Positions 4,401 through 21,947 of a stretch of DNA of 64,000 nt are shown here, one piece after another (the first letter of the stretch is position 1; each line of letters begins with the position of its first letter). Location: the NCBI GenBank assembly GCA_002424045.1, contig DIPH01000015.1, positions 70,550-134,549 on the forward strand, read 5' to 3'. This DNA is from Firmicutes bacterium UBA5493 (GTDB lineage: Bacteria; Bacillota; Limnochordia; Darwinibacteriales; Darwinibacteriaceae). The notes beneath the pieces were generated by a model. That model was not told the origin of the DNA, did not search any database, and saw only the letters and a program-made list of their open reading frames with translations. The translations under genes and the position numbers were made by a program.

Positions 4401-4422
4401 GAAAAACCCCCTTTTTGGGGGG
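4401..4422 (-). terminator. Rho-independent terminator downstream of uxaC
   Basis: CCCCC-TTTTT-GGGGGG hairpin followed by U-tract on minus strand, 64 nt after the uxaC stop. Confidence 0.6.
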
Positions 4423-4485: not shown

Positions 4486-5892
4486 CTACAACTCCACATC
4501 AAAATAATCCCGAGCATTGTTAAAACAGATATCTCTGACCATGCGTCCCATCAATTCCAAATCGTTGGGGGCCTCCCCAGTCTCCACCCAAGCGCCGAGT
4601 AAGTCACAGAGGATTCTGCGGAAATATTCGTGACGGGTGTAGGAGAGGAAGCTTCGGGAGTCCGTCAGCATGCCCACAAACCGGCTAAGCAAACCGATGT
4701 TAGCTAGAGCTACCATTTGACGAATCATCCCGTCTTTTTGATCGTTGAACCACCAACCCGAACCAAGCTGCATCTTGCCAGGAATCCCTCCACCCTGGAA
4801 AGAGCCTGCAATCGTGGCTAAAAGATCATTGTCGATTGGATTAAGAGAATACAAAATGGTCTTGGGCACGTGATTCGTCTCGTCAAGTTTGGACAAAAAG
4901 GCAACGAGAGCTCGACCATAAACTCGATCATCCATGGAGTCAAACCCGGTATCAGGCCCTAAGAGTCTGTGCATACGAGCACTGTTGTTTCTGATTGCAG
5001 AAAGGTGGAGTTGCATAACCCAGCCTCGTTCAGCATATTCCCTTCCTAAGAAAAGCAAGACTTGTGTCTTAAACATCTCCGTTTCTTCCTGGGTAAGCAT
5101 TTCTCTGCGTAAGGCTTTTTGCAGGGCAGAAGTCGCGTCCTCATCGGTTCCTTCCCCGTAAACAATGGGATCCAAACCATGATCGGATAGGCGACATCCC
5201 ATGCTATGGAAGAATTCAATCCTCTGCTTCAGTGCTTCCTTGAAGTCTGCGAATGTTCGAACCTCCCCACCAACGATTGCTTCAAGCTTCGTGACCCAAT
5301 CAACGAACCCAGGTTGATCAAGGTTAAAGCTCTTATCGGGTCGGAACGCGGGATACACCTTTACCGCAAAATCATTGTCCTCAGCCAAGGCTTGGTGGTA
5401 TCTTAGAGAATGGGCGGGGTCATCAGTTGTACACAGTCCCTTGACATTGGACCTTTCGATCAATGCTCTAGCCCTGAACTCTTCTTTCTGTAACAGACGA
5501 TTACACTCTTCCCAGATCTCCTCCGCCGTTTCTGGCGAGAGAAGTGCATCGATATCGAAGTACCTTCGCAATTCCAAATGAGTCCAATGATAGAGGGGGT
5601 TACCAATACATGCTGGCATCGTCTGGGCCCACTTCATAAACTTGTCTTTATCGCTGGCCTCACCAGTTATGTATTTCTCGTCGACTCCATTGGCCCTCAT
5701 GGCACGCCACTTATAATGGTCGCCGGCCAACCAAATCTCGGTTATATTTCTATACCTCTTGTTCTCAGCGATCTCCTTGGGGTTCAAATGACAGTGATAG
5801 TCAAAAATAGGCATGTCTTTCGCGTATTCATGATAGAGTCTTTCTGCTGTTGGGTTCGTTAATAAAAAGTTCTCATCCATAAACGATTTCAT
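4486..5892 (-). CDS. uxaC: Glucuronate isomerase (uronate isomerase)
   Basis: Start trimmed to MKSFMDENFLLTN (GGAGGGAG ribosome-binding site). Conserved UxaC N-terminus FLL..P.A..LYH...K..PI.DYHCHL. Confidence 0.9.
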   Translation of the reverse strand: MKSFMDENFLLTNPTAERLYHEYAKDMPIFDYHCHLNPKEIAENKRYRNITEIWLAGDHYKWRAMRANGVDEKYITGEASDKDKFMKWAQTMPACIGNPLYHWTHLELRRYFDIDALLSPETAEEIWEECNRLLQKEEFRARALIERSNVKGLCTTDDPAHSLRYHQALAEDNDFAVKVYPAFRPDKSFNLDQPGFVDWVTKLEAIVGGEVRTFADFKEALKQRIEFFHSMGCRLSDHGLDPIVYGEGTDEDATSALQKALRREMLTQEETEMFKTQVLLFLGREYAERGWVMQLHLSAIRNNSARMHRLLGPDTGFDSMDDRVYGRALVAFLSKLDETNHVPKTILYSLNPIDNDLLATIAGSFQGGGIPGKMQLGSGWWFNDQKDGMIRQMVALANIGLLSRFVGMLTDSRSFLSYTRHEYFRRILCDLLGAWVETGEAPNDLELMGRMVRDICFNNARDYFDVEL

Positions 5893-5983
5893 GCGTTTCT
5901 CCCTCCATATTGGATTTACCTGAGTGTCTGGCTCTACCAAAAAACCCGTACTCCCCATCACAAGGAGTACGGGTTGTGTCTAT

Positions 5984-7435
5984 TTAGGCATTATAGGTAG
6001 ATGCCGCGGTGCTTCCCCCTTGACCGGTCCAGTTCGTGTGGAAAAACTCTCCACGTGGTTTGTCTATCCGTTCGTAGGTATGGGCGCCAAAGTAATCCCT
6101 CTGGGCCTGCAGTAGATTTGCTGGAAGCCGGGAGTTGCGATAGCCGTCATAATAGCTGAGGGCTGCGCTAAAGGCCGGTACTGGAATGCCATGGAGCATG
6201 GCTGTGGCACACACTTTTCTCCAGCTCTCCTGGGCCTGGGTAATCTTCTCCTTGAAGATGGGATCCAAGAGCAAATTAGCGAGTTCTGGGTTTTGATCGA
6301 AAGCTTTTTTGATATCACCCAAGAAAGCCGAGCGAATAATACATCCTCCCCGCCACATGAGTGCGATGCCGCCGTAGTTTAGATCCCAACCATGACTCTC
6401 TGCTGCTGCACGCATCAAGGCATACCCTTGCGCGTAGGAGACAATCTTGGAGGCATAGAGAGCTTGCCTGACATCTTCGATAAAGGCCTTCTTGTCGCCT
6501 GTAAAGCTCGGTTTCGGACCTTCGAGAACCTTGGAAGCCGCCACCCTTTCTTCCTTGAGGGCAGACAGAAAGCGTGAGTAAACTGCTTCCCCGATTAAGG
6601 TTAGGGGAACACCTTCATCTAGAGACGAAATGGCTGTCCATTTTCCTGTTCCCTTTTGCCCAGCCGTGTCTAGAATTTTCTCCACCAAAGGCGAACCATC
6701 TTCATCTTTATAGGCTAGAATGTCCGCGGTAATCTCGATGAGGTAACTATCCAGGTCCCCTTGATTCCAGTCGCTAAAGATCTCATGCATCTCATCAGGT
6801 GTCATCCCTAAGAGATCCTTTAAGAGATGGTAGGCTTCACAGATGAGCTGCATATCGCCGTACTCGATACCGTTATGCACCATCTTGACAAAGTGTCCGG
6901 CACCATCCTGCCCCACCCACTCAGCGCAGGGACTACCATCTTCCACCTTCGCAGCTACTGCTTGGAAGATGGGCTTAATATGGGACCAGGCTTCAGGTGA
7001 GCCGCCTGGCATGAGACTTGGTCCAAGAAGAGCGCCTTCTTCACCGCCAGATACTCCCGTTCCCACGTAGAGCAAGCCTTTTTCCTCCACATACTTCGTC
7101 CGGCGAATGGTATCGGGGAAGTGCGAATTGCCTCCATCGATGATGATATCGCCTGCTTCGAGGAGAGGAATCAGCTGCTCAATCAGATTGTCTACGGGCT
7201 TTCCTGCCTTAACCATGAGCATCACTTTACGAGGGGTCTTCAGGCTCTGCACCAGTTCTTCCAAAGAATGTGCCCCAATGATATTTTTGCCTTTCGCTCT
7301 TCCCTCTACGAAGGACGTTACTTTTTCCACTGTGCGATTATAAACTGCAACGGAAAAGCCTTTGCTTTCCATGTTCATAACCAAGTTCTCGCCCATTACT
7401 GCCAAACCGACTAAACCGATATCTGCTTTTGACAT
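5984..7435 (-). CDS. gnd: 6-phosphogluconate dehydrogenase, decarboxylating
   Basis: 483 aa with [17 protein letters not shown]-binding Rossmann motif and typical Gnd/GntZ core and C-terminal tail. Confidence 0.9.
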
Positions 7436-7459
7436 ACTTCATACACCCCTTATTTTTCG

Positions 7460-8539
7460 CTATCTCTGCACCCTCGCATTACCTTCCCAAATACTCCATA
7501 CCTGCTGTTCATCGGCAGGTTGGGCATAGTCGGTCAAGAACGTAGTAGCCATGGCACCAGTGGCCCAGGCAAATTGAACCCATTTTTCCGAATCCCAGCC
7601 CCGTAAAATGCCATACAGCAGACCGCCTACAAAACCATCGCCCCCGCCAATGCGGTCCAATACAGTAATGGGACGGGGCTCAACCACATGCCACTTGTCC
7701 TCAGCTAACAAGATGGCTCCCCACAAATGGGAGTTTACGCTGACAACTTCACGCAGGGTATTGGCAAAAACAGAGGTGTTGGGAAACTGTTCTTTGACTC
7801 TTCCAATCATGTCCTTAAAGCCATGGATCTGTTCATTAATGTCTTGGCCGCCAGCTTCAGGGCCTTTGATGCCCAGACAGAGTTGATAGTCTTCTTCGTT
7901 GCCGATCAAAACATCGCTTAAGCTTGCGATTTCGGTAAAGATGTCCCGTAGTTCCTCTTCCCTATTCTCCCAGAATGTTGCCCGATAGTTTAAGTCAAAG
8001 GAAACTAGCGTTCCGTGCTTCTTAGCAGAGCGGGCCAACTCCAGACAAAAGGTACTGGTTTCAGGGGATAATGCGGCAATTAGACCCGAAAGGTGCATAA
8101 TCTGTACACCTTCTTCGCCAAAAATCCGCTCCATGTCAAAGTCCGCTACATTCAGTGTGCGACCTACTTCTCCTGCCCTATCATTTTGCACTCTAGGACC
8201 GCGTGTACCGTATCCGCTGTCTGCAATGTTGAATTGATGGCGATAACCCCATGGTCCGCCCTGAGGTACTTCAGGACCCTCATAGGTCATGTGCCTGCTG
8301 GCTAAGTTGTTCTTGATAAACTGGGCAATGGGACTGCCCTTTACAAAGGCAGTTAGCACCTTAACCGGTAAACCAAGATACGAAGAAATGCTGGCTACGT
8401 TCGTTTCTGCGCTGGTGACCTGCATTTGAAACATATCACTAGAATGCACAGGCTGTCCGTTCATTGGCGTAATGCGCACTCCCATGCTCGTGGGAACCAG
8501 CAAAGAATAAGTAAAATCCTTTCGCAATTGTAGACTCAT
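7460..8539 (-). CDS. PfkB-family sugar kinase, 2-dehydro-3-deoxygluconokinase (KdgK)-like
   Basis: 359 aa. KdgK-like N-terminus (LLVPTSMGVRITP), AETNVA motif, PfkB signature DRIGGGDGFVGG. True substrate (KDG versus gluconate-like) is unknown. Confidence 0.7.
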   Translation of the reverse strand: MSLQLRKDFTYSLLVPTSMGVRITPMNGQPVHSSDMFQMQVTSAETNVASISSYLGLPVKVLTAFVKGSPIAQFIKNNLASRHMTYEGPEVPQGGPWGYRHQFNIADSGYGTRGPRVQNDRAGEVGRTLNVADFDMERIFGEEGVQIMHLSGLIAALSPETSTFCLELARSAKKHGTLVSFDLNYRATFWENREEELRDIFTEIASLSDVLIGNEEDYQLCLGIKGPEAGGQDINEQIHGFKDMIGRVKEQFPNTSVFANTLREVVSVNSHLWGAILLAEDKWHVVEPRPITVLDRIGGGDGFVGGLLYGILRGWDSEKWVQFAWATGAMATTFLTDYAQPADEQQVWSIWEGNARVQR

Positions 8540-8557
8540 TGGAATGTCCTCCTGTTC

Positions 8558-10096
8558 TTATTGTTTTATGCCAAGGGCTTTCAAATGGCGATTCATATGG
8601 CAGACGAGAAACTGCTCATACCGGCCCTCATGTTTTTTTAACACTTCGTAGATACCCTCTTTGAGCTTGGGATCTTGCAGCATGAACCCATAGGTGATGT
8701 GCAAGAGTTGGCGAGCATCATCTTGGTCAAGGAGTCCAGGTAGTTCCTGATCCTCGAGAGTATCAATTTCAGGGACTTTCGCGAGATCCATGCTCACGTG
8801 GTAATACTTGCGAGCGGCTTTAAGAGAGTCCAGAGCTTTTTGATGGAGTGCCCTATAAAGACAAGGATCTACATGTGCGATCACCCTCACGGCCTCCAGC
8901 CAATTGGTTCCGGCAGTTTTTACATGATACCCTGTAGCCCTTGCGTATTTACCGATAATGGGGAAGACGCTGAATTTATCGCTTCCAGAATGGATACTGA
9001 GTTTATATCCGAAGTGACTGGAAATGTCCGCGTGAACTGCAAACTCTTGCTCAAATTGTTCTAGATCGCCCATATAGTCAATGCCTTTCTCGAAGTGACC
9101 GTAAAAGCGCGGAGCAACGCTACAGACCTTGATACCCCTTTTTTTCAGCTCATTAGCGACAAAGAAGTGATCCTGGGGGGTTGTGGGTGTAGCCACTTCA
9201 TCGATACTGATCTCAAAGTCTATGGGCCGATCGAGTTTTGTAATTACTTGTTCATAGACCTTTTCCATGAAGTCCAGAGCTTGATGGTAGGTTAATGCCA
9301 TCCGTTGGTAATGCTCTGGATCCATATAAATGGTTGCACCATTTTGGAGCTCATAGCGTTGATCACAATAGAGTTCTTCAAATTCTTTTCGTTTTGCCTT
9401 TGGAAGCTGGTTATACTGGCTTAGAACCTCAGCCTCTGTTAGGTCTAGGATTTCATCATTGATGTGTTCCGAACAATCCAAAGTAATCATGCTGAATCCT
9501 AGCTCCAAAGCCATTAGAATATCTTCTATCTTTTTAAGATGGTCACCGTCTGCGCCATATCCTCCTTGATACCCTTCTTGGAAGACAGCCCAAGTAGCCG
9601 CATCAAGGACGTCTACATAGGTGCGGTTTGTTAGTTCCAATTCTCGCATAGATTGCTGGGCCAAAACCGGGCGCACTGGAGTGTCACGAATGGCCTTAAG
9701 ATGTCCGGGACTTGCAAGACCTAGACGATCTCCGAGCCCCATGGAAATCCCACTGGTGCCTAAAGCCTGAGGTGCAGTCCAAGTCAAAAGGGAACGTAAA
9801 ACCTTTGCATTCTTGCCATTTAAGGCAACCTGTTTCACCATAAAAACACCTACGTTAGAAACCTCGCCTTCGAATTGGTCAGTCCCCTCCCGATCTGAGA
9901 CAACGACCACTCGCCTTTCTCGAGCTTCCTTAACCATGAACAGAAGCTTATCATAGGCGAGTTGTAATGAGTCGGGGAAGACATCGCCCGATTCTTCTTC
10001 TAAGCGTTGTTTCAAGTCTTCAAGAGTCTCGGCTTGTTTCACCGTTTCGCGCCAACTTGTCACAACCATTCCTCCTCGTAGTGGTCTAAACTTCAC
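8558..10096 (-). CDS. Putative tagaturonate/fructuronate epimerase (UxaE-family-like) protein
   Basis: 512 aa with His/Asp/Glu-rich segments (SIHSGSDKFS). Operon context with uxaC/kdgK matches the Thermotoga-type uxaE arrangement. Assignment is by resemblance and context only. Confidence 0.4.
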   Translation of the reverse strand: MKFRPLRGGMVVTSWRETVKQAETLEDLKQRLEEESGDVFPDSLQLAYDKLLFMVKEARERRVVVVSDREGTDQFEGEVSNVGVFMVKQVALNGKNAKVLRSLLTWTAPQALGTSGISMGLGDRLGLASPGHLKAIRDTPVRPVLAQQSMRELELTNRTYVDVLDAATWAVFQEGYQGGYGADGDHLKKIEDILMALELGFSMITLDCSEHINDEILDLTEAEVLSQYNQLPKAKRKEFEELYCDQRYELQNGATIYMDPEHYQRMALTYHQALDFMEKVYEQVITKLDRPIDFEISIDEVATPTTPQDHFFVANELKKRGIKVCSVAPRFYGHFEKGIDYMGDLEQFEQEFAVHADISSHFGYKLSIHSGSDKFSVFPIIGKYARATGYHVKTAGTNWLEAVRVIAHVDPCLYRALHQKALDSLKAARKYYHVSMDLAKVPEIDTLEDQELPGLLDQDDARQLLHITYGFMLQDPKLKEGIYEVLKKHEGRYEQFLVCHMNRHLKALGIKQ

Positions 10097-10109
10097 CGGG
10101 CCTTCCCAG

Positions 10110-10865
10110 CTAGAGAATTAACGAAGCCGAGTCTCGATCAAGATACAAAGTGACATCCGCGTGAGTTCGAAGGATCGATGCAGGGCACTTCGTGCTGATG
10201 GGCCCTTTCAGGGCATCATGCACAGCCTGGGCTTTTCGCCCATCAGGAACAACCGAAATAATCTTCTTACATCTCAAGATGGCTGGGACAGTGAGGGTCA
10301 GTGCCTCTTCAGGAACGTCCTCTAAAGCTTTGAACCAGCCCTCTCCCAATTGTTGCCGTCTGCAAGCATCATCTAACTGCACCACTTTTACCAGAAACTC
10401 ATCTTCAAAATCGGCCACCGGGGGATCGTTGAACGCAATATGACCATTTTCACCGATTCCGATAAAACCGAGCTTAATAGGGTTGGCTTCAATAAGTTGA
10501 GCATAACGCTCACATTCCCCTTCTACGTCTGCGGCGTCACCTTGGATGTACTCTACTTTATTGGGGCGGAACACCTTCTCGATGCGTTCTCTAATCCATA
10601 GCCTGAAACTTGCAGGATGCTCCGGGGACATCCCCTTATATTCGTCTAGATGGAAAGCTATAACCCTGCTCCAATCAATAGTCTGTGTCTTAAGACCATC
10701 CATAAAGGTAAACTGTGATGCCCCCGTCGAAAACAACAGATTTACCATGGGTTCCTGCACACTCTGCAAGTATGAGCTGGTGTCCTCTGCTGCAGCACGC
10801 CCCAACTCCTGCGCATTTTCGTACACTTTGACCTTAATGTTATTGAACTGCATTTCCCTAATCAT
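10110..10865 (-). CDS. Glucosamine-6-phosphate deaminase / 6-phosphogluconolactonase family protein (NagB-like)
   Basis: 251 aa with LFSTGAS, IGIGENGHIAFNDP motifs of the NagB/Pgl family. Ribosome-binding site AAGGAGG 9 nt upstream. Confidence 0.75.
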   Translation of the reverse strand: MIREMQFNNIKVKVYENAQELGRAAAEDTSSYLQSVQEPMVNLLFSTGASQFTFMDGLKTQTIDWSRVIAFHLDEYKGMSPEHPASFRLWIRERIEKVFRPNKVEYIQGDAADVEGECERYAQLIEANPIKLGFIGIGENGHIAFNDPPVADFEDEFLVKVVQLDDACRRQQLGEGWFKALEDVPEEALTLTVPAILRCKKIISVVPDGRKAQAVHDALKGPISTKCPASILRTHADVTLYLDRDSASLIL

Positions 10866-10869
10866 TGAG

Positions 10870-12153
10870 CTAAGCCTCCTTGTTACCTTTGGGGAAGTCC
10901 TTTTCCAAAGCCCAAAGACCTAGAGCTGGATTACTAATGTAAAAGACTTCTTCTCCGTTAACGATATTACGGCCTTCCTTGAGCTGGTCTAGCCTATACT
11001 GGCTGACAGCTTGGGCATAGGGCACGTAGTTGTAATTGACTCCTCGAATCTCCTCTTCCGTCAAATGCTCCACCGCATAGGTGATTTTGAAGCGGTTTTC
11101 CGAGGAACCATGAATTAAATGTGCTGCCACCGACAGATTCTTCCCCAGTTCCTCACTGGTTTTCACAAAGTCTAGAATCTCACGACTGGTCTTATAACCG
11201 AAAGCGCGAATCAAACGATCAATCTCTGGATCTTCGCCAAACATACGAACACCAGGAGCCAAAATGACCAACTCACCATCATCTGCAATGGCCATTCTTG
11301 TGCGATACACGGACTTATTGCCCAGCCAGGTGCTCCTAAATTCGTTGGGATCCAAGTAGACGACAACTTTCTTGAGAGGTTCAGAGAGCAAGTCCAAATT
11401 GCATACTTGACTCTTAGCTACAGCCTGGCTAAACGCCTCGCGCTCCTTGCCCAAGAATAAGCCCTGCAGTGCAGTGGCTTCGTCCCTTGTTTCAGTTACG
11501 GTAAGAACATAAGCCAAGGGCAAATCATGCAGGAAATGCTCTTCTGCATAATCAAACACCTTACGAACGGGGGAATAATCCCGACCCATCATTTTCTCCA
11601 TGCCGTAAACTGCTCCGAGAAAATGGGACTTGTCAATAATATCTTTACCACCGCACCCTACCACGATGTTCTTGGTGTAATTGGCCATCCCCACTACCTC
11701 ATGTGGTACGACTTGACCGATGGACAAGATGAGATCATACTGGCCTTCGAGAATTTCACTGTTGATATCCACAACAATGGAATAATCCACGAGGCCTTCA
11801 GAGACTTCCTTTACAAAACCGCCTGGCACAACGCCCACCGTTTTAACATCGGTGCGCCAGTTATGGTCTAGGTACACCTCAGGCGGTACATCTGCCCCAA
11901 AAATCCGCTGTTTTTCCTCCAAGGTCATGGGTACATGGGTTCCCAAGGCCGGCAAAATTCTTACCTCTGCAGGCTGCAACAAGTGGTGCAACATACTCGT
12001 GATTGGTCCGGCCATGCTATGTGCCCTGGTGCCGTCTGGAGGGATTAGCAACACTTTATCTAGGGGCTTTTCGTATGCACCCAGCCATGTGGCCAACTCC
12101 TTTTGGACGGTCTCTAAATCGATGGGACCGTCTGCCAAGAAACGACTTTCCAT
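10870..12153 (-). CDS. LarA-family (nickel-pincer-nucleotide-dependent) alpha-hydroxyacid racemase/epimerase homolog
   Basis: 427 aa with LLIPPDGTRAHS (D-x-TR motif), ALGTHVPMTLEEK (LarA ALGTHRPMT motif), VVPHE..G and conserved Lys region. Consistent with DUF2088/LarA N- and C-domains. Confidence 0.65.
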   Translation of the reverse strand: MESRFLADGPIDLETVQKELATWLGAYEKPLDKVLLIPPDGTRAHSMAGPITSMLHHLLQPAEVRILPALGTHVPMTLEEKQRIFGADVPPEVYLDHNWRTDVKTVGVVPGGFVKEVSEGLVDYSIVVDINSEILEGQYDLILSIGQVVPHEVVGMANYTKNIVVGCGGKDIIDKSHFLGAVYGMEKMMGRDYSPVRKVFDYAEEHFLHDLPLAYVLTVTETRDEATALQGLFLGKEREAFSQAVAKSQVCNLDLLSEPLKKVVVYLDPNEFRSTWLGNKSVYRTRMAIADDGELVILAPGVRMFGEDPEIDRLIRAFGYKTSREILDFVKTSEELGKNLSVAAHLIHGSSENRFKITYAVEHLTEEEIRGVNYNYVPYAQAVSQYRLDQLKEGRNIVNGEEVFYISNPALGLWALEKDFPKGNKEA

Positions 12154-12174
12154 ACCTTACACCACCCTCTATTT

Positions 12175-12987
12175 CTATACTCCCGAAAACGCTGCAAATC
12201 CGCCATCCACAGGTACAACGATTCCGGTGACAAATCGGCTTGCATCCGATACGAGCCAAATAGCGGTACCCACTAGGTCAGAAGGTTCTCCAAAGCGGCC
12301 CATGGGTGTGTGCTCTAAGATTGTACGGCCCCGAGCTGTTAAATCACCTGTTTTCTCCTCGGTTAGCAAGAAGCGATTCTGCTTGGTCAAGAAGAAGCCT
12401 GGTGCCATTGCATTCACCCTTATATTTGCGGAATAGTGTTTGTTTAGATGGACCGCCAGCCACTGGGTGAAATTGCTTACTGCTGCTTTAGCACCGCCAT
12501 AACCTACAACATTGGTCAATGGCCGTATGGCTGCCATGGAGGAGATATTCAGAATCACTCCCTCTTTTTTCTCTGCGAGGATTTCGCCGAAAACTTGCGA
12601 AGGAAGCAAGGTGCCCATGAAGTTGAGTCGCACAACGTTATCCAGATCCTGTTCGGGTAAATCAAAAAAGGACAAATTCGGGCTTGTGGTTGCGGATGGG
12701 CTATTGCCCCCGACCCCATTCACCAGAATATCGATGGTACCATACTTGGCTAGAATCTCTTCCCGAGCTTGCAGGAGACTTTCCCGATCTAAAGCATCGA
12801 ATGGAATACTGACGGCGTCCCCCCTCGCTTCCTTAATTTCCGCAACCAGTTCATCCGCGGGGTTACGATCCAATACCGCAATTTTGGCCCCGGCTTTGGC
12901 TAGGCCGCGGGATAGTTCACTCCCCAAAATACCTGCTCCACCCGTAATTGCCACAACTTTACCACTCAAATCAAATAATCCTTGCAT
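12175..12987 (-). CDS. SDR-family D-mannonate/fructuronate oxidoreductase (UxuB/YjmF-like)
   Basis: 270 aa with TGGAGILG Rossmann motif and YGGAKAA catalytic Y-x3-K. Resembles the Bacillus SDR-type UxuB. Confidence 0.7.
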   Translation of the reverse strand: MQGLFDLSGKVVAITGGAGILGSELSRGLAKAGAKIAVLDRNPADELVAEIKEARGDAVSIPFDALDRESLLQAREEILAKYGTIDILVNGVGGNSPSATTSPNLSFFDLPEQDLDNVVRLNFMGTLLPSQVFGEILAEKKEGVILNISSMAAIRPLTNVVGYGGAKAAVSNFTQWLAVHLNKHYSANIRVNAMAPGFFLTKQNRFLLTEEKTGDLTARGRTILEHTPMGRFGEPSDLVGTAIWLVSDASRFVTGIVVPVDGGFAAFSGV

Positions 12988-13058
12988 AGATGCCCCTCCT
13001 TGTTCTTGTGCTTTGTCGACATAGAAATTCTTTGAAGTTGTCCTGAAACAAGCTATTT

Positions 13059-13075
13059 AGTTGCGTGACGCAACT
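13059..13075. promoter_or_regulatory. Perfect palindrome AGTTGCGT-g-ACGCAACT, candidate operator upstream of the SDR-first sugar-acid operon
   Basis: 8-bp arms are perfect reverse complements around one central base. Lies between the ROK-gene terminator and the SDR start, about 70 nt upstream of the start codon. Confidence 0.45.
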
Positions 13076-13083
13076 TAGTCACC

Positions 13084-13109
13084 GAAAAAAGAGTGGTCTA
13101 GAACCACTT
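13084..13109 (-). terminator. Rho-independent terminator after ROK regulator gene
   Basis: AGTGGT-N6-ACCACT hairpin followed by U-tract on minus strand, immediately after the stop at 13114. Confidence 0.55.
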
Positions 13110-14366: not shown

Positions 14367-15647
14367 CTACTTGATCATATGGTTGATAACAGTAACATCC
14401 GTCTTCTTCATGCCTTCAGAGGCAATGTTCCCGATTACACTGATGGTCTCCTCCACATTGGACTTGACAATACCGTCCCCATCCAAAAACTTCAGAGCGG
14501 TAAAGGACATGGTCAGCCCCATAATGGCTGCATCTACTGACGATGCAATTTTTGCTGCACACGACGGTTTGGCTCCATCACAAAGAATGCCCGAAACATT
14601 AGCTAATGTGTTTGTGATGGTATCGCAAACCTCTTCATAATCTCCTCCGAGCATGTAGGTGATGGCAGCACCTGAACCGCAGGCTGCACTTACCGCGCCA
14701 CAATAGGCCGAAAGGCGACCAATACCGGTTTTCTGATGAATGGCCACGAGGTTACTTACACACAGAGCCCTAAACAACTTTTCCTCAGACAATTCATAGT
14801 ATCTGGCATAGACGATAACGGGGATAGAGGCAGCAATGCCCTGGTTTCCGCTTCCAGAGTTGATCACAACAGGCAATTGGCAACCGTCCATGCGGGCATC
14901 GGAAGCGGCAGCAGCTGTAGCACGGGCAACATTCCCGACGGCATTTCCGAAGTTCTCCAGGAGGACCTTGCCCACACTAGCGCCGTAGTCCTCTGTTAAG
15001 CCTGCTTCTGCAATGGCGGTATTATGCTCAACCTGGGGCCTGAGAATGGGCTCAACATCCTCGAGTTTCACAGAATGAGCAAAGTCCAGAATATCTCTGA
15101 CATTCAAGAGCGAACGATCGGTAAGTGTTTCACCACCCTCGGCACTTACTCCTTTATCCAAGAGGATGTTGCCGTCCTTTTCGATCCGCACAAAGCTCGT
15201 GTGGGTATGCAAAATCTCAACTAAGGCGTGGCTTTGCTTCGACGTCCCCTCCACAATAAGATGGAGTTTAGCTGGAGTTTTATCCAAGAGTTCCACCACG
15301 CAGCACGAAGCATCAGCGATGCGCTCCTTCGTGTTTTCAATGTCTTTTTCCTTAACAGAACTTAGGACCGCCAAACCACGATCTGCTTCTCCACCGAAAA
15401 TGCCCAGCCATACCGCGGTCGCAATTCCTTTTAGACCGTTAGAGTGGGGAATGGTCACCGACTTGGTGTTTTTGATCAAGTTTCCACTCATCCTGACCTC
15501 AATTTTCTCAGGAACCTCACCTAGAACGTCCCGAAGCTTAGCACCGGCTAAAGCCAAACAAGCAGGCTCGGTGCAACCTACAGCAGGTACCAATTCTTCC
15601 TCCAAGATAGCAATATAATTCTCGTATTTCACCTTATCAATACACAT
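14367..15647 (-). CDS. UPF0597/YhaM(CyuA)-family serine-dehydratase-like Fe-S protein (L-cysteine desulfidase homolog)
   Basis: 426 aa with AVGCTEPACLALAGA, INSGSGNQGIAASIPVIV, LCDGAKPSCAAKIAS. These align closely with E. coli YhaM motifs. Confidence 0.7.
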   Translation of the reverse strand: MCIDKVKYENYIAILEEELVPAVGCTEPACLALAGAKLRDVLGEVPEKIEVRMSGNLIKNTKSVTIPHSNGLKGIATAVWLGIFGGEADRGLAVLSSVKEKDIENTKERIADASCCVVELLDKTPAKLHLIVEGTSKQSHALVEILHTHTSFVRIEKDGNILLDKGVSAEGGETLTDRSLLNVRDILDFAHSVKLEDVEPILRPQVEHNTAIAEAGLTEDYGASVGKVLLENFGNAVGNVARATAAAASDARMDGCQLPVVINSGSGNQGIAASIPVIVYARYYELSEEKLFRALCVSNLVAIHQKTGIGRLSAYCGAVSAACGSGAAITYMLGGDYEEVCDTITNTLANVSGILCDGAKPSCAAKIASSVDAAIMGLTMSFTALKFLDGDGIVKSNVEETISVIGNIASEGMKKTDVTVINHMIK

Positions 15648-15670: not shown

Positions 15671-16528
15671 TTAACCTTTAACCGCACCGGCCACTTGACC
15701 GGATTTCTGATATGTCTGCATGACTAGGTAGAGAATAATACTGGGGACAATGACCAAGGTAGTGCCCGCCAGTACCACTTGCCATGGCGTCGATAATCCG
15801 TCGCTGACTGGGAGCATTGAAACCGAAACCATCAGCGTATACTTAGAACTATCGCGCAAATACAGAAGGGGCCAGAAGTAGTCGTTCCAACGGGCAATAA
15901 CCGTGATAGATGCCCAGGAGGCCAATGCTGGTTTGGCAATGGGCACAACAATTCTTCTATAGATGCCAAATTCACTGCATCCGTCAATACGAGCCGAATC
16001 AATGATGGCGTCGGGTATATCCAACATATATTGCCTCAAATAGAAAATACCAATGGCAGTGGCCATCCGCGGAATGATCAAGGACCATAGACTGTTAACC
16101 AAGCCTACTCTGCGCATGATCACAAACATGGGAACCGCACCAACTTCTGGCGAAATCATCATGGTAGCAATGACAAAATAGAAGAGAGCATTGCGCCCGG
16201 GAAAATCGAATTTAGCAAAGGCATATCCTGCCAGGGAACAGAAAAACAACGTGGTCACCGTCCCCACGATGGAGGTAAATGCACTGTTTAAGAGATTTGT
16301 CCAGATTGGAATGAGTTCAAAAAGCCGCTTGTAGTTGGCCAGTGTTGGACTTTGAATACGCAGGGCATTAAACCCAGTAATACTCTCTCCCACTTCTTTA
16401 AAGGAAATAATGGACATCCAGAGTACTGGGAAGAGACAAAAGGCAACAATAATGCACAGCAATCCATGGACAACAAGTTTACGAAGCACTTCCTTTGTCT
16501 TGTAGCTCATAACAAACCCCCCCGTCAC
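15671..16528 (-). CDS. Carbohydrate ABC transporter permease (CUT1 family, MalG-like)
   Basis: 285 aa with EAA-like loop (IDGCSEFGIYRRIVVPIAKPAL). GTG start overlaps the upstream stop (TAGTG); an alternative ATG lies 18 nt downstream. Confidence 0.85.
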   Translation of the reverse strand: MTGGFVMSYKTKEVLRKLVVHGLLCIIVAFCLFPVLWMSIISFKEVGESITGFNALRIQSPTLANYKRLFELIPIWTNLLNSAFTSIVGTVTTLFFCSLAGYAFAKFDFPGRNALFYFVIATMMISPEVGAVPMFVIMRRVGLVNSLWSLIIPRMATAIGIFYLRQYMLDIPDAIIDSARIDGCSEFGIYRRIVVPIAKPALASWASITVIARWNDYFWPLLYLRDSSKYTLMVSVSMLPVSDGLSTPWQVVLAGTTLVIVPSIILYLVMQTYQKSGQVAGAVKG

Positions 16529-17397
16529 TAGATTTCACCCGTCCTGCGTCGTACCATGAACTGAATGAGCGAAATACCAAGCAGAATTACAATCAACACT
16601 ACACCTAACGCAGAACCGTAACCCAATTTGAAGTTGGTGAAAGCGGACGTATACATCAGTTCAAACAACGATGTATTTGATGTTCCAGGCCCAGATAATA
16701 TGTGGGACTCATTGAAAAGTCGCCACGCGTCTACGGTGATGGTGATAAAGCAGAAGAACAGAATATTATTTAGCAGTGGCAGGGTGATACGGAGAAACTG
16801 TTGCCAGCCCGATGCTCCATCCACTGTAGCTGCTTCGTAATACTCATCGGAGATATTCAATAGACCAGATAGGATAATCATTGTGAACCAAGGCGTTAGG
16901 CGCCAGATAAACAAGATCACTACTGGAATCCAGGCATAGGCACTTGTGGTCAACCAGGGAATACGACTTCCTCCCAAGGACACAATGACCTCATTCACCA
17001 GGCCTGCATGTTCTTCAAACAACATTCGGAAAATTAACCCCATGGCCACCGAAGCACAGACATACGGAAGAAATGTGGACGTTTTGAAGAACTGTTTCGA
17101 GCGTAACACTTTGCTATTGAGCAAAACAGCGATGAGTAAAGACAATCCCATGATGCCAATGGCTCCCACGATCCAGTAGCGAAATGTATTCTGGATAGCA
17201 TTGGAAAACATGTAGTCATTCATCATGAGCTGGTAATTTCTCCACCCAATCCACCTCGGAGGCCTTAGCCCGTTCCATTCAGTAAAGCTGTAATACACAG
17301 TGGCAATGGTGGGAACAAGCTGAAATACCAGGAAGAGAATGAGATAAGGTGCGATGAATAGATAGGGATGGCGATGCTTTCTCAACGTCTCCCACAT
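16528..17397 (-). CDS. Carbohydrate ABC transporter permease (CUT1 family, MalF/UgpA-like)
   Basis: 289 aa polytopic protein with ABC permease signature. Confidence 0.85.
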   Translation of the reverse strand: MWETLRKHRHPYLFIAPYLILFLVFQLVPTIATVYYSFTEWNGLRPPRWIGWRNYQLMMNDYMFSNAIQNTFRYWIVGAIGIMGLSLLIAVLLNSKVLRSKQFFKTSTFLPYVCASVAMGLIFRMLFEEHAGLVNEVIVSLGGSRIPWLTTSAYAWIPVVILFIWRLTPWFTMIILSGLLNISDEYYEAATVDGASGWQQFLRITLPLLNNILFFCFITITVDAWRLFNESHILSGPGTSNTSLFELMYTSAFTNFKLGYGSALGVVLIVILLGISLIQFMVRRRTGEI

Positions 17398-17510
17398 GAA
17401 AATCCTCCTTTTCCGCTATTAACCGGCAACGCCCGGAAAACGGGCCTCACCTCGGGCGAGATGTCCTGGCGCACCCATTAGTACGGAGCGCGCCAGGGCC
17501 AGAGTACTCC

Positions 17511-18839
17511 TTAGGGCATCTCTGCCCGGCCAATACGGAGTTTGAGTTCTTTATCCATATTAGCAATTGCCTGTACCATTGTTTGCTCACCGGCCACATA
17601 TTTCTCAATCTCAGCACTGATGATGCCGTCAGCTTCATTGTCCTGTGGCGTTACTGTCATGTTAGGTGAAGGATTGAACAGACCATCAGCCTCGGCTTTT
17701 CGGAACGATTGACCGCCGTAGAAAGACGAGGGTTCTTGCCAGAATGGATCCGACAGCACTTCAAGGGAAACTGGGTTGGAGTAGGGACCATTCAGTCTGT
17801 CCATCTCGTTTACCCATGCGTTGCGCTCTTCAGTATTGGTCGAGAAGTCATACCACATATCCAAGAACAGATCCACGTAGGTGTCGTCTCCCTTGTTTAC
17901 TACGCAGAAGTACGTAGAAACAGGGGCACCGCCGGTGCCTACTTCTTCAAAGACAGGCGCACCCATCACTCGCCAATCACCAACAGTGGCTGTCAGGTTC
18001 CTGCGCAAGAATTCATCCCAGAATGCACCGATATAGAATGTAGCAATTTTGCCTTGATCCGTTGCTTCATAAAGTGGCGGCTGCATCATGGTTGTTCTGT
18101 AGAGAAGCCCCTCGCTGTGAAGCTGATCCAAGAATCCAAGGGCCAGCTTTGTACCTTCGTCTTCGCCGATGACCACATTCCCATTTTCATCCCAGATTCT
18201 AGCATTGGCTTGAGGCATCAAACCGCGACGACCCCAGTAACGCCAGGTATAGGTGGTGGGATCAATATAAGATAGATAGACTTCACCATTGCTGCGTTCT
18301 TTTAGGAGACGTCCTGCTTCAAGATATCCGTCAAAGGTGCCCATCATAGCGGGATCTACGTCATACTCTTCGAAAATCGCCGCATTGTAGAATAACACTT
18401 GGGGACGAACAGCGTCAGGCAGAGCCCAAACACGTCCATCAATGGTGGCATCGAGTACTGCACCGTCCACGAACTGATCTGCGATTGGTGTCCAATAATC
18501 AGTCATGTCTAACAGTAATCCAGCATCAACCAAGTTCATGATGCCTACTGCATCAAGCATAATCACATCTGGCATATCTTTGTAAGCGCCAGCGAGATTA
18601 TCCATGGCGATCTTCTGAACGCCAGCGTGCATGGTTTCGATCTGAACTGTCTCAACATCCACATTAGGAGCAAAGCGATGGATGGAAGGTTGGTAGAATA
18701 GTTCCCGGAAATGAGGTTGTCCAGTAGAGTAAATGAGAATCTTTCCATCTGGATAAGTGTCTTGAGCCATCACAGGAAAAACGCTCATAACCAACGAAAC
18801 GACGACAAGCAACACTAAGGACATTGATTTTCTGTACAT
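17511..18839 (-). CDS. Extracellular solute-binding protein, family 1 (sugar ABC transporter substrate-binding protein)
   Basis: 442 aa. Signal peptide cleaved ...PVMA|QD without lipobox. SBP_bac_1-like. Confidence 0.85.
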   Translation of the reverse strand: MYRKSMSLVLLVVVSLVMSVFPVMAQDTYPDGKILIYSTGQPHFRELFYQPSIHRFAPNVDVETVQIETMHAGVQKIAMDNLAGAYKDMPDVIMLDAVGIMNLVDAGLLLDMTDYWTPIADQFVDGAVLDATIDGRVWALPDAVRPQVLFYNAAIFEEYDVDPAMMGTFDGYLEAGRLLKERSNGEVYLSYIDPTTYTWRYWGRRGLMPQANARIWDENGNVVIGEDEGTKLALGFLDQLHSEGLLYRTTMMQPPLYEATDQGKIATFYIGAFWDEFLRRNLTATVGDWRVMGAPVFEEVGTGGAPVSTYFCVVNKGDDTYVDLFLDMWYDFSTNTEERNAWVNEMDRLNGPYSNPVSLEVLSDPFWQEPSSFYGGQSFRKAEADGLFNPSPNMTVTPQDNEADGIISAEIEKYVAGEQTMVQAIANMDKELKLRIGRAEMP

Positions 18840-18974
18840 TCTTGAGAGTCCTCCTTCTTCGATATCTTACTCAATAACAGTAGGATAAATCTTGTGCTCT
18901 CTAGCATTGATGAGCTCTTGAACAGCACCTCCAATCCCCTCCACATCATAAGACGCGACATAGTTGGCACAGAT

Positions 18975-19619
18975 TTAGCGCAAGGAATCAATGTCAACTT
19001 CCAATACTCGTTTGGCATAGGCTAAATCTCTGTTTTTGCATGCTTCAACGAACTCAAAATGGCGCGCACCTGAGGAGCGCTCCTTCATGAGAGGATTGTC
19101 GCGGTCATAGCCACTAAAGTGTTGGGTCGTAGCCCGAGTCAACTTACGTAATATCTGTTCCAAAAGCCCATAGAGAACCTGATTTTGGGCGTAAGAAGCC
19201 AGCTGCAGGTGGAAAGTCATGTTGCGTTTCCAGTTGTCCATGGGTGCCCCATGAATTTCAGCATCTTTGCGATTGGCATGGTTCAATCTTTCCAACTCGG
19301 CGATGACTTCATCGGTCAGCATGTGGAAGCTTCTTTCCAACATATAGATTTCTAAGGCCTGGCGTGCTTCGGCTAATTCCCTTATTTGCTTGGGAGTGAT
19401 CTGCACTACCATATAGCCCAGCCGCGGTATAGAACGCAAAATATCCTCATTACAAAGTTCAATGAGCGCTTCCCGAACCGGCGATTTGCTTACCCCGAAC
19501 TCGTGAACTAACCTGCTCTCCGTAATAATATCCTCCGAGCTGTATTTTCCGTTAATCACGTCGCTATACACTTGATCATAGACTTTTCTTGTTAATGGTT
19601 TTGAGTTTTGTAGTGCCAT
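18975..19619 (-). CDS. GntR-family transcriptional regulator (FadR/FCD C-terminal domain)
   Basis: 214 aa. N-terminal GntR winged HTH (LVHEFGVSKSPVREAL) plus FCD-like C-terminus. Confidence 0.85.
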   Translation of the reverse strand: MALQNSKPLTRKVYDQVYSDVINGKYSSEDIITESRLVHEFGVSKSPVREALIELCNEDILRSIPRLGYMVVQITPKQIRELAEARQALEIYMLERSFHMLTDEVIAELERLNHANRKDAEIHGAPMDNWKRNMTFHLQLASYAQNQVLYGLLEQILRKLTRATTQHFSGYDRDNPLMKERSSGARHFEFVEACKNRDLAYAKRVLEVDIDSLR

Positions 19620-19662
19620 TCCCCCACTCCCCTTCGCCTTGCATTATTGTCACAGACTCGTC

Positions 19663-20622
19663 TTAGAGATCACCCGCAGCATCCATCACTGCCCGGAGAT
19701 GCGAGACTTCAATGTTTTCCGGCAGAGTGCAATCGGCACCGATAATGAACCTCTCCCGGCCGACCTCAGCAACGATCTCAGCTGCCGTGCGGGCAATTTC
19801 CTCTGTGGGGCCATCAACGAGCACACCACTACGGTCGTCAAAGCCGCCCAAGAGCGTTTTTCCAGGAAACAATCTTCTTCCATCGGCTAATGTATAGTCA
19901 CTTTCGTGGATCGCCCAGTTGATCACGTCAGCGTTGATCGGAGAGTACATGGGTATGTTAGTACCGCCTTTACAGATATGCAGGATACTGATTGCACCTT
20001 GCTCATTGATATGATCAACCACTGCAGCATCTAAAGGCCTGACATACTTCTCAAACAAGCTTTGTTCGAAACGATGCGCTTCGCCACCTAGAGCGGCATA
20101 AAAAATCCCGTCAGCACCAGCTTCGACCAACTTGGTGCTGAGCTCACACAGCGTTTTTACCACGCTTTTTAACGCCGTGGCCACTGTCTCAGGGTCCTCC
20201 CTAAGATGCCTGCTCACTAAGTTATCTGGGTTTGCAAAATAGCCTGGTTCTTCCGTTGCATGATAAGCTGAAACAAGAACTCCATGTACCGTAGCGAACA
20301 ACGGTAGGTCCTGTGGCAACTCAGCACGAAGCATTCGAAACTCTGTGAGGTATTCTTCATATCCAGTGCGTTCCCATGGCAACGCCTTTAGATCCTTCCA
20401 ATCGGATATGTTAGAAATTGGTTTTTCCATGCGATAAAAATGCTCGTTCATGACTTTGAGTATATCTGGTTTAACCTTCTGGTAATAATCCAAATGGGCC
20501 TCTACTGCGGCACGGCCCGTCCAGTTATCGGAACTAAAATGATGCCAAAAGCCACACAGAACTCCGTCTATGCTTTCTCCACGAAGTGTCGCGTGCAGGC
20601 GTTCCCGTCGATCCACAATCAT
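19663..20622 (-). CDS. Uroporphyrinogen decarboxylase (URO-D)-like family protein of unknown function
   Basis: 319 aa with URO-D/MtaA-like TIM-barrel features. First gene of the operon with the GntR regulator and sugar ABC transporter; no haem-biosynthesis neighbours. Confidence 0.6.
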   Translation of the reverse strand: MIVDRRERLHATLRGESIDGVLCGFWHHFSSDNWTGRAAVEAHLDYYQKVKPDILKVMNEHFYRMEKPISNISDWKDLKALPWERTGYEEYLTEFRMLRAELPQDLPLFATVHGVLVSAYHATEEPGYFANPDNLVSRHLREDPETVATALKSVVKTLCELSTKLVEAGADGIFYAALGGEAHRFEQSLFEKYVRPLDAAVVDHINEQGAISILHICKGGTNIPMYSPINADVINWAIHESDYTLADGRRLFPGKTLLGGFDDRSGVLVDGPTEEIARTAAEIVAEVGRERFIIGADCTLPENIEVSHLRAVMDAAGDL

Positions 20623-20840
20623 TCTCCTTTTATAGCAAACGTTGCGTTTATTTAATATTATCAGTAGTAATATTACCCTAGTATTTAATAGAAGTCAACC
20701 CCATAAATGTACTTGTTATTGGACGAATTTTGGCATTTTAAACCGTTTTCGCGAAAATAAAGCTCGGAAGATATTATCACTAATCATATCAGCCTGGGTC
20801 CGATCACCCTAAACATTGCCTTACCTTCACCCGATCGTAA

Positions 20841-21947
20841 CTAGAGGTAGTGTGACGGAGGACGGCAACAAAGGAGTCTAAGAGGAGTCTGCTCCGCTTC
20901 TGTGGAGAGAGTGAACTCGCCTAAGATAGCTGGCCAAAACATGACATCCCCCTGATTGATGGTCCATCTTCGACCGCCTACCTCCATACTGCCTCGACCC
21001 TGTACGGCAATGGCAATGGTATAGGTTTCCATCTCTAGTTCTGTGCGCCCCCGCACCACAAATTCTGTTAGCCCAAAGTAGGGTTGATCAGGGTCTCCCA
21101 TCATGGTCTCGTAAACGCTAACCTGGGCCCCTTCGGACACTATCGGCACGAGTCTTCTTTTCGCCAAATTTCCCTCAGGAGAATCTCCCTGGTACTGGAA
21201 TAAGTCTAGGGCTCGTTCCCAGCCTAACCCTAAGTGGTTGGAGGAATGCTCGAGGGGGGCATCTTGACCATTCGCTTCAGCGTAGATTGTGAGATCCGAG
21301 GGCTCTTGGATCTCTAACATGAGTACGCCGGAACCAATAGCATGGGGGACACCCGCGTCCACCATGAAAATGTCCCCTGGTCTGACGTCAACTCGGTGCA
21401 TCATGGCAATGAGAGACTCTGTATCCCGATTCAGGAGTGCCTCTTTAAAGTCCAGAGCACGAACCCCCTCACGAAAACCCAAGAGAATATAAGGCGGAAC
21501 ACCATTGATGCTTCTGGTTTCAAGAATGTACCAGGCTTCAGCTTTGCCATGACGGCTACCGAATAAGGACAGGGCTTGTTGGCGCGATGGATGCACCTGA
21601 ACCCTCAGTCGTTCACAGGAGTCCAGTAATTTGGCCAAAAGGAAGGGATGCGCACCGAACACTTCCACATGTTTTTCCCCGAGCATCTCCCGTGGATATT
21701 GCTTGATTACATCATCTAACATGAGCTCACGATCACCAACGGACACAAGGCTCAAACCTTCGTTGGGATGCGTTTTCAGACGAGAAGCTGTTGTCGATCC
21801 GAGCCAATCCTCTGGTGCACAGCTATCTCGGGGATTAGGGTACCTTCGAAAGGCCTCCAAGAGTAGTCCTCCACGATAGGTACGAAGAACCCGGTTGGGC
21901 TTTAACACGAATGCTTGTTTCAATTGGTCTTGGGTCAAATGGAGCAA
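20841..21947 (-). CDS. manA: Mannose-6-phosphate isomerase, class I
   Basis: 368 aa. Type-I PMI zinc-binding motifs VQVHPS...AEAWYIL...HAIGSG. TTG start with AAAGGAG ribosome-binding site. Confidence 0.8.
   Translation of the reverse strand: MLHLTQDQLKQAFVLKPNRVLRTYRGGLLLEAFRRYPNPRDSCAPEDWLGSTTASRLKTHPNEGLSLVSVGDRELMLDDVIKQYPREMLGEKHVEVFGAHPFLLAKLLDSCERLRVQVHPSRQQALSLFGSRHGKAEAWYILETRSINGVPPYILLGFREGVRALDFKEALLNRDTESLIAMMHRVDVRPGDIFMVDAGVPHAIGSGVLMLEIQEPSDLTIYAEANGQDAPLEHSSNHLGLGWERALDLFQYQGDSPEGNLAKRRLVPIVSEGAQVSVYETMMGDPDQPYFGLTEFVVRGRTELEMETYTIAIAVQGRGSMEVGGRRWTINQGDVMFWPAILGEFTLSTEAEQTPLRLLCCRPPSHYL

Follow-up and report, generated by a model that had tools for sequence, protein, structure and literature searches.

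A minus-strand uronate gene cluster in a Limnochordia genome predicted to reach 6-phosphogluconate through a group-18 LarA homologue and a PfkB-family kinase

We analysed a stretch of 64,000 nucleotides from Firmicutes bacterium UBA5493 (contig DIPH01000015.1, positions 70,550 to 134,549; this whole 64-kb stretch is called the window below), in which an earlier note had described seven minus-strand genes at 4486-13075 as a possible non-canonical route from hexuronates to the pentose phosphate pathway. Our analysis indicates that this operon probably carries uronates to 6-phosphogluconate and then to ribulose-5-phosphate independently of 2-keto-3-deoxygluconate (KDG), where we infer every enzymatic activity from the sequence. 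Uronate isomerase UxaC would yield fructuronate from glucuronate and tagaturonate from galacturonate, and UxaE would convert tagaturonate to fructuronate, which makes it the likely entry point of galacturonate carbon. An SDR-type reductase (SDR, short-chain dehydrogenase/reductase) would then use NAD(P)H to turn fructuronate into D-mannonate, and a group-18 LarA homologue (LarAH18), with nickel-pincer nucleotide (NPN) as its cofactor, to be made by LarBCE encoded elsewhere in the genome, would invert C2 to give D-gluconate. Finally, a PfkB-family kinase (PfkB-A) would phosphorylate gluconate at C6, and Gnd would convert 6-phosphogluconate to ribulose-5-phosphate, CO2 and NADPH. Because Gnd would give back the NAD(P)H spent by the reductase, the path from uronate to pentose phosphate would be redox-neutral, and such a route would suit a fermenting anaerobe. 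The sequence of intermediates from glucuronate or galacturonate to ribulose-5-phosphate, as outlined in the earlier note, is the best fit to the gene set, to its conservation over 80 related loci and to published work. The novelty suggested for it does not stand, as the route had already been proposed for Thermotoga in 2012, as later papers describe, and work from 2020 to 2024 has confirmed part of it. The seven genes are as follows.

12175-12987, minus strand: SDR-type D-mannonate oxidoreductase / fructuronate reductase, UxaD-like (NF006132/PRK08277, 359 bits, cut-off 281)
10870-12153, minus strand: LarA homologue of group 18 (NF052594 'NPN_18_hexonate', 608.5 bits, cut-off 500, full length)
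10110-10865, minus strand: NagB/Pgl-family protein, NagB-like (under every NCBIfam cut-off)
8558-10096, minus strand: UxaE, tagaturonate/fructuronate 3-epimerase (PF16257, 626 bits, full length)
7460-8539, minus strand: PfkB-family kinase, PfkB-A (PfkB Pfam match; passes no equivalog model)
5984-7435, minus strand: Gnd, decarboxylating NADP-dependent 6-phosphogluconate dehydrogenase (TIGR00873, 784 bits, cut-off 427)
4486-5891 (longest open reading frame to 5961), minus strand: UxaC, uronate isomerase (PF02614, 734 bits; NF002794, 667 bits, cut-off 387)

These assignments come from a profile scan in which all 56 open reading frames (ORFs) of at least 90 aa in the window were compared with Pfam, and the proteins of the cluster also with NCBIfam; the positions and families that had been read from the letters alone were upheld by it. 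Y163 and K167 of the SDR match the classical SDR catalytic Tyr-x3-Lys, and both Gnd domains (NAD_binding_2 and 6PGD) were found with Pfam. Gene callers place the start of uxaE ~33 nt later, which gives a protein of 501 aa. The longest uxaC ORF opens at GTG 5961 and the PF02614 match begins only at residue 24 of this ORF; the true start is probably ATG 5891, which is preceded by a GGAGGG ribosome-binding site. With the uxaC start corrected in this way, the intergenic gaps from the SDR gene to uxaC are 21, 4, 13, 18, 24 and 92 nt. The scan found no UxuA/UxaA, 2-keto-3-deoxy-6-phosphogluconate (KDPG) aldolase, LarB, LarC or LarE among the 56 ORFs, and tblastn of the window with UxuA, Eda, LarB, LarC, GntK and FGGY queries from related loci gave no match, which agrees with the earlier observation that the dehydratases and the aldolase of the canonical pathway are absent from this stretch.

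The identification of the LarA homologue as a member of group 18, a putative NPN-dependent hexonate 2-epimerase of the GntE type, is well supported by its residues, and the step proposed for it is the interconversion of D-mannonate and D-gluconate. The published counterpart of NF052594 is group 18 of the LarA superfamily, which Desguin et al. 2020 (PMC7583248) set up and called a 'putative hexonate epimerase'. The best PDB match of the protein was 4NAR, a chain that agrees with the sequence which the Desguin dataset gives for TM0442/GntE2, and we read the signature residues from a HMMER alignment to 4NAR against the positions given in PMC7583248. The catalytic histidines (LarA H108 and H174) correspond to H73 and H151, and the NPN-binding and other conserved LarA residues D72, R75, K184, H200 and K298 to D40, R43, K161, H177 and K280. 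Across 72 aligned family members these catalytic and NPN-binding residues are near-invariant, with one R75C as the sole exception. The group-18 pocket signature E-V / W-L-x-N-K / S-x-A-A-x-L-I-H-x-S is present (E152, V153, W276, L277, N279, K280, S341, A343, A344, L346, I347, H348, S350), and all 19 signature residues equal those of the group-18 rows of the Desguin dataset. At the position of LarA I362, group 18 has Ser and groups 19 and 20 have Arg, so that no obvious extra phosphate-binding residue is offered.

Desguin et al. showed D-gluconate 2-epimerase activity for groups 19 and 20, with group 18 outside the assayed set, and their Table S1 lists as group-18 gene context SDR (36%), Gnd (32%), ribokinase-family kinase (16%), UxaC (12%) and KduI (12%) (PMC7583248). 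A later study (JBC 2024, PMC11770544) described 'LarAH15' of Phytophthora nicotianae as a narrow-spectrum mannonate/gluconate 2-epimerase, with KM 9.4 mM, kcat 111 s-1 and kcat/KM on free mannonate of ~1.2e4 M-1 s-1. The cloning primer of LarAH15 encodes MATLLFAEG, which matches MTLLFAEGSKTAELS of P. infestans PITG_09435, a protein placed in group 18 by Desguin. Hence, on the strength of this primer-encoded N-terminus and the P. infestans group-18 assignment, LarAH15 is probably a group-18 orthologue that acts on unphosphorylated acids. Moreover, LarC and LarB genes come after LarAH18 in two related loci (L032 and L040), which fits a nickel-pincer enzyme.

Conservation of the gene neighbourhood was followed in one genome per species (103 relatives, from which 80 loci were kept; these, and loci from further look-ups, are cited below by L numbers), with neighbours located by tblastn with the proteins of the window. 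The closest loci are in Bacillota metagenome-assembled genomes from anaerobic digesters (L001 and L002, with 90% and 83% LarAH18 identity). The others belong to Bacteroidota, Planctomycetota, Spirochaetota, Acidobacteriota, Gammaproteobacteria, Verrucomicrobiota/Lentisphaerae and Mycoplasmatota, which together with Bacillota makes about eight phyla. Gnd was the commonest partner of LarAH18, found in 51 of the 80 loci, followed by the SDR (46), PfkB (35), UxaC (32) and UxaE (25), and the NagB-like gene in none (0). In 49 loci each flank extends for 5 kb or more, and of these Gnd was present in 35, the SDR in 34, UxaC in 25, PfkB in 24 and UxaE in 22. UxuA was near LarAH18 in three of the 80 (L025, L032 and L040) and KDPG aldolase (Eda) in seven. 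This pattern disfavours the reverse use of the epimerase, from gluconate to mannonate, which had been named as the alternative: no gene accompanies the epimerase more regularly than gnd, and UxuA is hardly ever close to it.

The kinase beside LarAH18 is swapped non-orthologously among these loci: PfkB-A in 29, a second type, PfkB-B (33-37% identical), in five, a P-loop GntK in nine and an FGGY kinase in three. Three representative P-loop kinases scored 143-154 bits on TIGR01313 (cut-off 114). The 19 signature positions of LarAH18 are invariant whichever kinase adjoins, and a search for alignment columns that separate PfkB-A-linked from GntK-linked LarAH18 gave none. A different arrangement occurs in Bacteroidales/Rhodothermaceae loci, where a phosphofructokinase-family gene (Pfam PFK) and a HAD-family hydrolase gene precede LarAH18 (L022, L025, L034 and L035), and a gene for a PdxB-like D-2-hydroxyacid dehydrogenase follows LarAH18 in place of PfkB-A in L022, L034 and L035, and also in L024, L026 and L033. 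This context may be a further solution to phosphorylation or a different branch of the pathway.

PfkB-A is most likely a gluconate 6-kinase (D-gluconate + ATP to 6-phosphogluconate), with phosphorylation of D-mannonate to 6-phosphomannonate as the alternative step. It passes no gluconokinase model, and scores 166 bits on a model of KdgK-type kinases, on which a true KdgK paralogue scores 513 bits. In the 29 loci with PfkB-A orthologues (62-94% identical), gnd directly follows the gene on the same strand in 23. Furthermore, four loci (L026, L033, L056 and L085) have a separate PfkB, only 28-30% identical, beside KDPG aldolase, and in these PfkB-A stands beside LarAH18 or Gnd. As judged by these comparisons, PfkB-A is KdgK-like in fold but probably not KdgK, and forms an orthogroup of its own. 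R121 (NDR121) and R186 (NYR186) align with R105 and R167 of Thermus thermophilus KdgK, and the protein also has the GGGD anion-hole motif. We take R105 and R167 to hold the carboxylate of the sugar acid, and retention of the two arginines thus suits a hexonate substrate. The nearest solved structure is T. maritima KdgK (2afb, 115 bits). Database searches gave more than 8000 PfkB-A matches at E < 1e-30, of which the best 120 are all at least 78% identical and spread across Bacillota, Bacteroidota and Planctomycetota; the homologues are annotated just as 'sugar kinase' or 'KDG kinase' (2-dehydro-3-deoxygluconokinase). Conservation of PfkB-A (~80%) is above that of its neighbours LarAH18 (~50-57%) and SDR (~48-56%). 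Five look-ups of PfkB-A context returned two LarAH18-Gnd contexts and three stand-alone genes, and one of the former is a minimal operon, SDH_alpha-SDR-LarAH18-PfkB-Gnd, in a relative with genes syntenic to the window. A literature search found no PfkB-type gluconokinase, and no paper on LarA with glucuronate and 6-phosphogluconate beyond those cited here. PfkB-A would be a third, non-homologous class of gluconokinase beside P-loop GntK and FGGY GntK, and we consider this more likely than the version with phospho-hexonates. That the PfkB-A family is a new hexonate kinase and group 18 at the same time a phospho-hexonate epimerase seems doubtful to us.

Several points weigh against the proposed route or parts of it. 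Group-18 activity is known through the Phytophthora enzyme, a presumed orthologue, and not through a bacterial member or the proteins of this operon, and the KM values published for free mannonate with GntE enzymes are high (9-120 mM; PMC7583248, PMC11770544). The genes larB, larC and larE are missing from the window by the profile scan, and larB and larC also by tblastn, and uxuA and kdgA may lie elsewhere in the genome. In L087, L090 and L091 PfkB-A stands alone, and neither LarAH18 nor Gnd is encoded within 8 kb of it, so that its substrate need not belong to the uronate route. The model assigns no role to the NagB-like gene or to the conserved SDH_alpha-like gene described below. Moreover, the order of epimerase and kinase is not settled, because extracts of Lactobacillus suebicus phosphorylate mannonate first (PMC6978723).

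This last point defines an alternative in which PfkB-A is a D-mannonate 6-kinase and LarAH18 a 6-phosphomannonate/6-phosphogluconate 2-epimerase feeding Gnd. In the hybrid isomerase-phosphoketolase pathway of L. suebicus, a mannonate kinase, suspected to be a GntK homologue, is followed by a 6-phosphomannonate 2-epimerase, and both activities were demonstrated in extracts with the genes not named (Valk et al. 2020, PMC6978723); our literature search found no later naming. In favour of this alternative are the high KM of GntE enzymes for free mannonate, with phosphorylated substrates apparently outside the assayed set, and the fact that PfkB-A is a distinct and highly conserved orthogroup that lacks a gluconokinase annotation. 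Nevertheless, we regard this alternative as unlikely and clearly favour epimerisation before phosphorylation, because the presumed Phytophthora orthologue works on free mannonate with the catalytic efficiency given above, because curated P-loop gluconokinases are frequent partners of LarAH18 and its signature stays constant with them, no column distinguishing PfkB-A-linked from GntK-linked members, and because the kinase usually lies directly before gnd rather than beside the epimerase. The Ser at the I362 position also speaks against phosphorylated substrates. A more distant alternative is the canonical isomerase (Ashwell) pathway, in which the kinase would be KdgK, with uxuA and kdgA located beyond the window, and LarAH18 and Gnd would either belong to a separate metabolism of gluconate or turn imported gluconate into mannonate. 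The closest solved structure and the public annotation of the kinase homologues both point to KdgK, our search covered 64 kb with the rest of the genome outside it, and UxuA does stand beside LarAH18 in L025, L032 and L040. However, PfkB-A is far from the Eda-linked KdgK paralogues of the same loci in identity and in score, its constant neighbour is gnd and not eda, UxuA is near LarAH18 in those three of the 80 loci alone, and no gluconate permease signature adjoins the operon, which together make this pathway very improbable.

The NagB-like gene raises another possibility, namely that the operon serves a mixed amino-sugar/uronate substrate, such as a glycosaminoglycan-like or amino-uronate oligosaccharide taken up by the ABC system encoded upstream; this would extend the proposed route and not replace it. 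The protein would then deaminate an amino-sugar phosphate, or convert a 2-amino-uronate to a keto-uronate that UxaE epimerises. Of the earlier label 'NagB/6-phosphogluconolactonase family', the NagB part is the one that the protein resembles: the closest PDB match is B. subtilis NagB (2bkv, 121 bits), the nearest structures are all glucosamine-6-phosphate deaminases, and the score on TIGR00502 is 132 bits (cut-off 237). Function as a 6-phosphogluconolactonase was ruled out, with 52 bits on the pgl model against a cut-off of 124 and deaminases as the nearest structures. The protein has equivalents of E. coli NagB D72, H143 and K208, with E148 changed to Asp and R172 to Gly; in E. coli NagB, D72, H143 and E148 are catalytic and R172 and K208 bind phosphate. 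The whole clade (the window, L093-L098 and L105) carries GIGENGHIAFNDPP, with Asp for Glu148 and no equivalent of Arg172, changes that count in favour of a mixed substrate. In 19 contigs of the window's lineage, and in an 82%-identical relative (L105), the gene is flanked by larAH18 and uxaE, and because of this stable position it is a real lineage-specific insertion. In addition, an unrelated sugar cluster that lacks LarAH and Gnd encodes a 76%-identical member at a distance of two genes from a UxaE homologue (69% identical); the clade is found near UxaE homologues twice, independently. Upstream of the operon are also genes for a ROK regulator of NagC-like type and for a CUT1-type ABC transporter. 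On the other side, the NagB-like gene is in none of the 80 related loci, including relatives with 83-90%-identical LarAH18 (in L001 and L002, uxaE directly follows larAH18 with no NagB-like gene between), a 65%-identical homologue sharing the E148/R172 changes sits in an ordinary nagB/nagA-like/ROK operon, and neither a glycoside hydrolase nor a polysaccharide lyase is encoded next to the operon. We therefore regard a mixed substrate as improbable and treat the protein as an accessory enzyme, putatively like amino-sugar-phosphate deaminases, and not as a core step; its inclusion among the components of the pathway is not borne out.

Expression of the operon is probably controlled at a palindrome upstream of the SDR gene. 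The elements concerned, and the hairpins that bear on transcript structure, are given below.

13059-13075, no strand: operator-like palindrome AGTTGCGTGACGCAACT, perfect 8-1-8, 72-88 nt upstream of the SDR start codon
13114-14349, minus strand: ROK-family regulator with N-terminal winged helix-turn-helix (HTH) and ROK domain, NagC/Mlc-like (Pfam ROK, 190 bits; HTH matches residues 20-63)
13092-13108, minus strand: terminator-like hairpin and T-run ending the ROK gene
5943-5975, minus strand: strong terminator-like hairpin between gnd and uxaC, with a 15-bp stem and a T-run
4407-4421, minus strand: terminator-like hairpin and T-run closing the cluster

The palindromic operator of the earlier note is confirmed as a perfect repeat that occurs once in the window, even with three mismatches tolerated, and is kept at the equivalent position in L001, L002 and L105. 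When the arms are stretched to 12 nt, 10 of 12 positions match, and the copy in L002 is 12-1-12. It lies just downstream of the hairpin that ends the ROK gene, a hairpin retained with sequence changes in L001 and L002. The ROK protein, which scores 238 bits on the NagC model (under its cut-off), is encoded upstream of the SDR gene also in L001, L002, L006, L007 and L105, and is a candidate repressor of the operon that would most likely act at the palindrome; this pairing is a proposal, as is the inducer. In L081, a degenerate copy of the palindrome, TTAATTGCGCTATGCAACTAAA, is found upstream of the SDR gene at 6820-6850 and no ROK gene adjoins it; thus the protein that binds the palindrome is not necessarily the neighbouring ROK regulator.

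At the other end of the cluster, the hairpin between gnd and uxaC overlaps the long uxaC ORF that opens at GTG 5961, and could act as a partial terminator or mark a site of processing. Because of this hairpin and the later start at ATG 5891, uxaC is possibly part-insulated from the rest of the cluster. Apart from this hairpin, the seven tightly packed genes look like a single operon.

Upstream of the ROK gene, at 14367-15647 (minus strand), lies an SDH_alpha/UPF0597-like gene for a protein of 426 aa (PF03313, 209 bits; no NCBIfam family). In all close relatives of this Bacillota lineage (L001, L009, L081-L084 and L105) it is a neighbour of the SDR-LarAH18-PfkB-Gnd module, and in L009 it stands immediately before LarAH18. 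It is conceivable that the protein is an Fe-S dehydratase or deaminase acting on a hydroxy- or amino-acid sugar. Further upstream (15671-21947, minus strand) are genes for a CUT1-type ABC transporter (a solute-binding protein and two permeases, with no ATPase gene), a GntR/FCD regulator (18975-19619), a URO-D-like protein and a cupin/mannose-6-phosphate-isomerase-like protein. This set is kept in L002 and in part in L105, and the substrate of the transporter could set the true inducer of the operon.

Elsewhere in the window, a second PfkB gene (22544-23503) was considered as KdgK and ruled out, as it is a 1-phosphofructokinase (TIGR03828, 295 bits, cut-off 292). Together with a following nitroreductase gene (the pair spans 22544-24068, plus strand) it adjoins the module also in L001, L009 and L105, and the pair is unrelated to uronate catabolism. 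At 30926-32287 (minus strand), one ORF of 453 aa encodes a shikimate dehydrogenase N-terminal domain and a shikimate kinase domain in a single protein, and sits in a chorismate-pathway cluster with chorismate synthase (29789-30919) and chorismate mutase (28948-29832).

The route would lead pectin- and hemicellulose-derived uronic acids into the pentose phosphate pathway without net redox cost, which is impossible by the classical KDG route, and for this reason such a route is wanted in efforts to engineer fermentation of pectin-rich waste. The LarAH18-kinase-Gnd module extends beyond Thermotoga and Lactobacillus to at least eight phyla, in anaerobic-digester, gut, soil and marine bacteria. Consequently, models of uronate catabolism that score just UxuA, KdgK and KdgA misjudge such organisms. 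The cluster also supplies cloneable candidates for two questions, the substrate of PfkB-A and the action of a bacterial group-18 LarA on free versus phosphorylated hexonates. No concept is changed by these findings, since the idea of the pathway has been in the literature since 2012. Two elements are new: the prediction that a very widespread PfkB family annotated as KdgK phosphorylates gluconate (or mannonate) and so feeds Gnd, and the spread of the LarAH18-kinase-Gnd module across phyla.

The cluster thus follows a known pathway logic and is not a new kind of pathway; it differs by its LarA subgroup, its PfkB kinase, its ROK regulator and operator, the presence of uxaC and the NagB-like gene. 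In Thermotoga maritima, a UxaR-regulated operon aldH-pelB-gnd-uxaR-uxaE-uxaD-gntE-gntK is required for galacturonate catabolism, according to PMC3750489, which describes Rodionova et al. 2012; its SDR UxaD has mannonate oxidoreductase activity (PMC5673643), and the epimerase activity of GntE2 (TM0442) was demonstrated in 2020 (PMC7583248). Both clusters bring together UxaE, an SDR-type UxaD, a LarA-type epimerase, a hexonate kinase and Gnd, and both would connect hexuronates with the pentose phosphate pathway without UxuA or KdgA. However, the epimerase belongs to group 18 here and to group 20 there, with ~25-30% identity to TM0442 as read from the 4NAR alignment, and the kinase here is of the PfkB family and of no recognised gluconokinase family (FGGY or P-loop GntK). 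The T. maritima gntK product (TM0443) is probably an FGGY kinase. Regulation also differs, with a ROK regulator and a different palindrome here and the GntR-type UxaR with a 17-nt operator there, and the present cluster includes uxaC and the extra NagB-like gene.

As in L. suebicus, uronates would pass through UxaC, UxaE and a reductase (UxuB there) to mannonate and then to 6-phosphogluconate and Gnd, redox-neutrally and bypassing UxuA, KdgK and KdgA; the difference from L. suebicus is that the evidence here speaks for epimerisation as the earlier step, and that the kinase belongs to the PfkB type. LarAH18 has the identical 19-residue signature of group 18, to which the Phytophthora GntE probably belongs, and its gene context is that listed in Table S1 of Desguin. 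Compared with the KdgK-type PfkB kinases (TM0067/2afb and T. thermophilus 1v19), PfkB-A has the same fold family, the arginines aligned with R105 and R167 and the GGGD motif, whereas it is ~28-30% identical, has Asn at the position of T. thermophilus Tyr103 and has gnd and not eda as its partner. With the Ashwell pathway of E. coli (UxaC-UxuB/UxaB-UxuA/UxaA-KdgK-KdgA), the upper half, from uronate isomerase through fructuronate to mannonate, is common. In place of the dehydratase and KDPG aldolase, for which no gene is found in the window, the lower half consists of epimerase, kinase and Gnd, and the predicted end products are ribulose-5-phosphate and CO2 instead of pyruvate and glyceraldehyde-3-phosphate.

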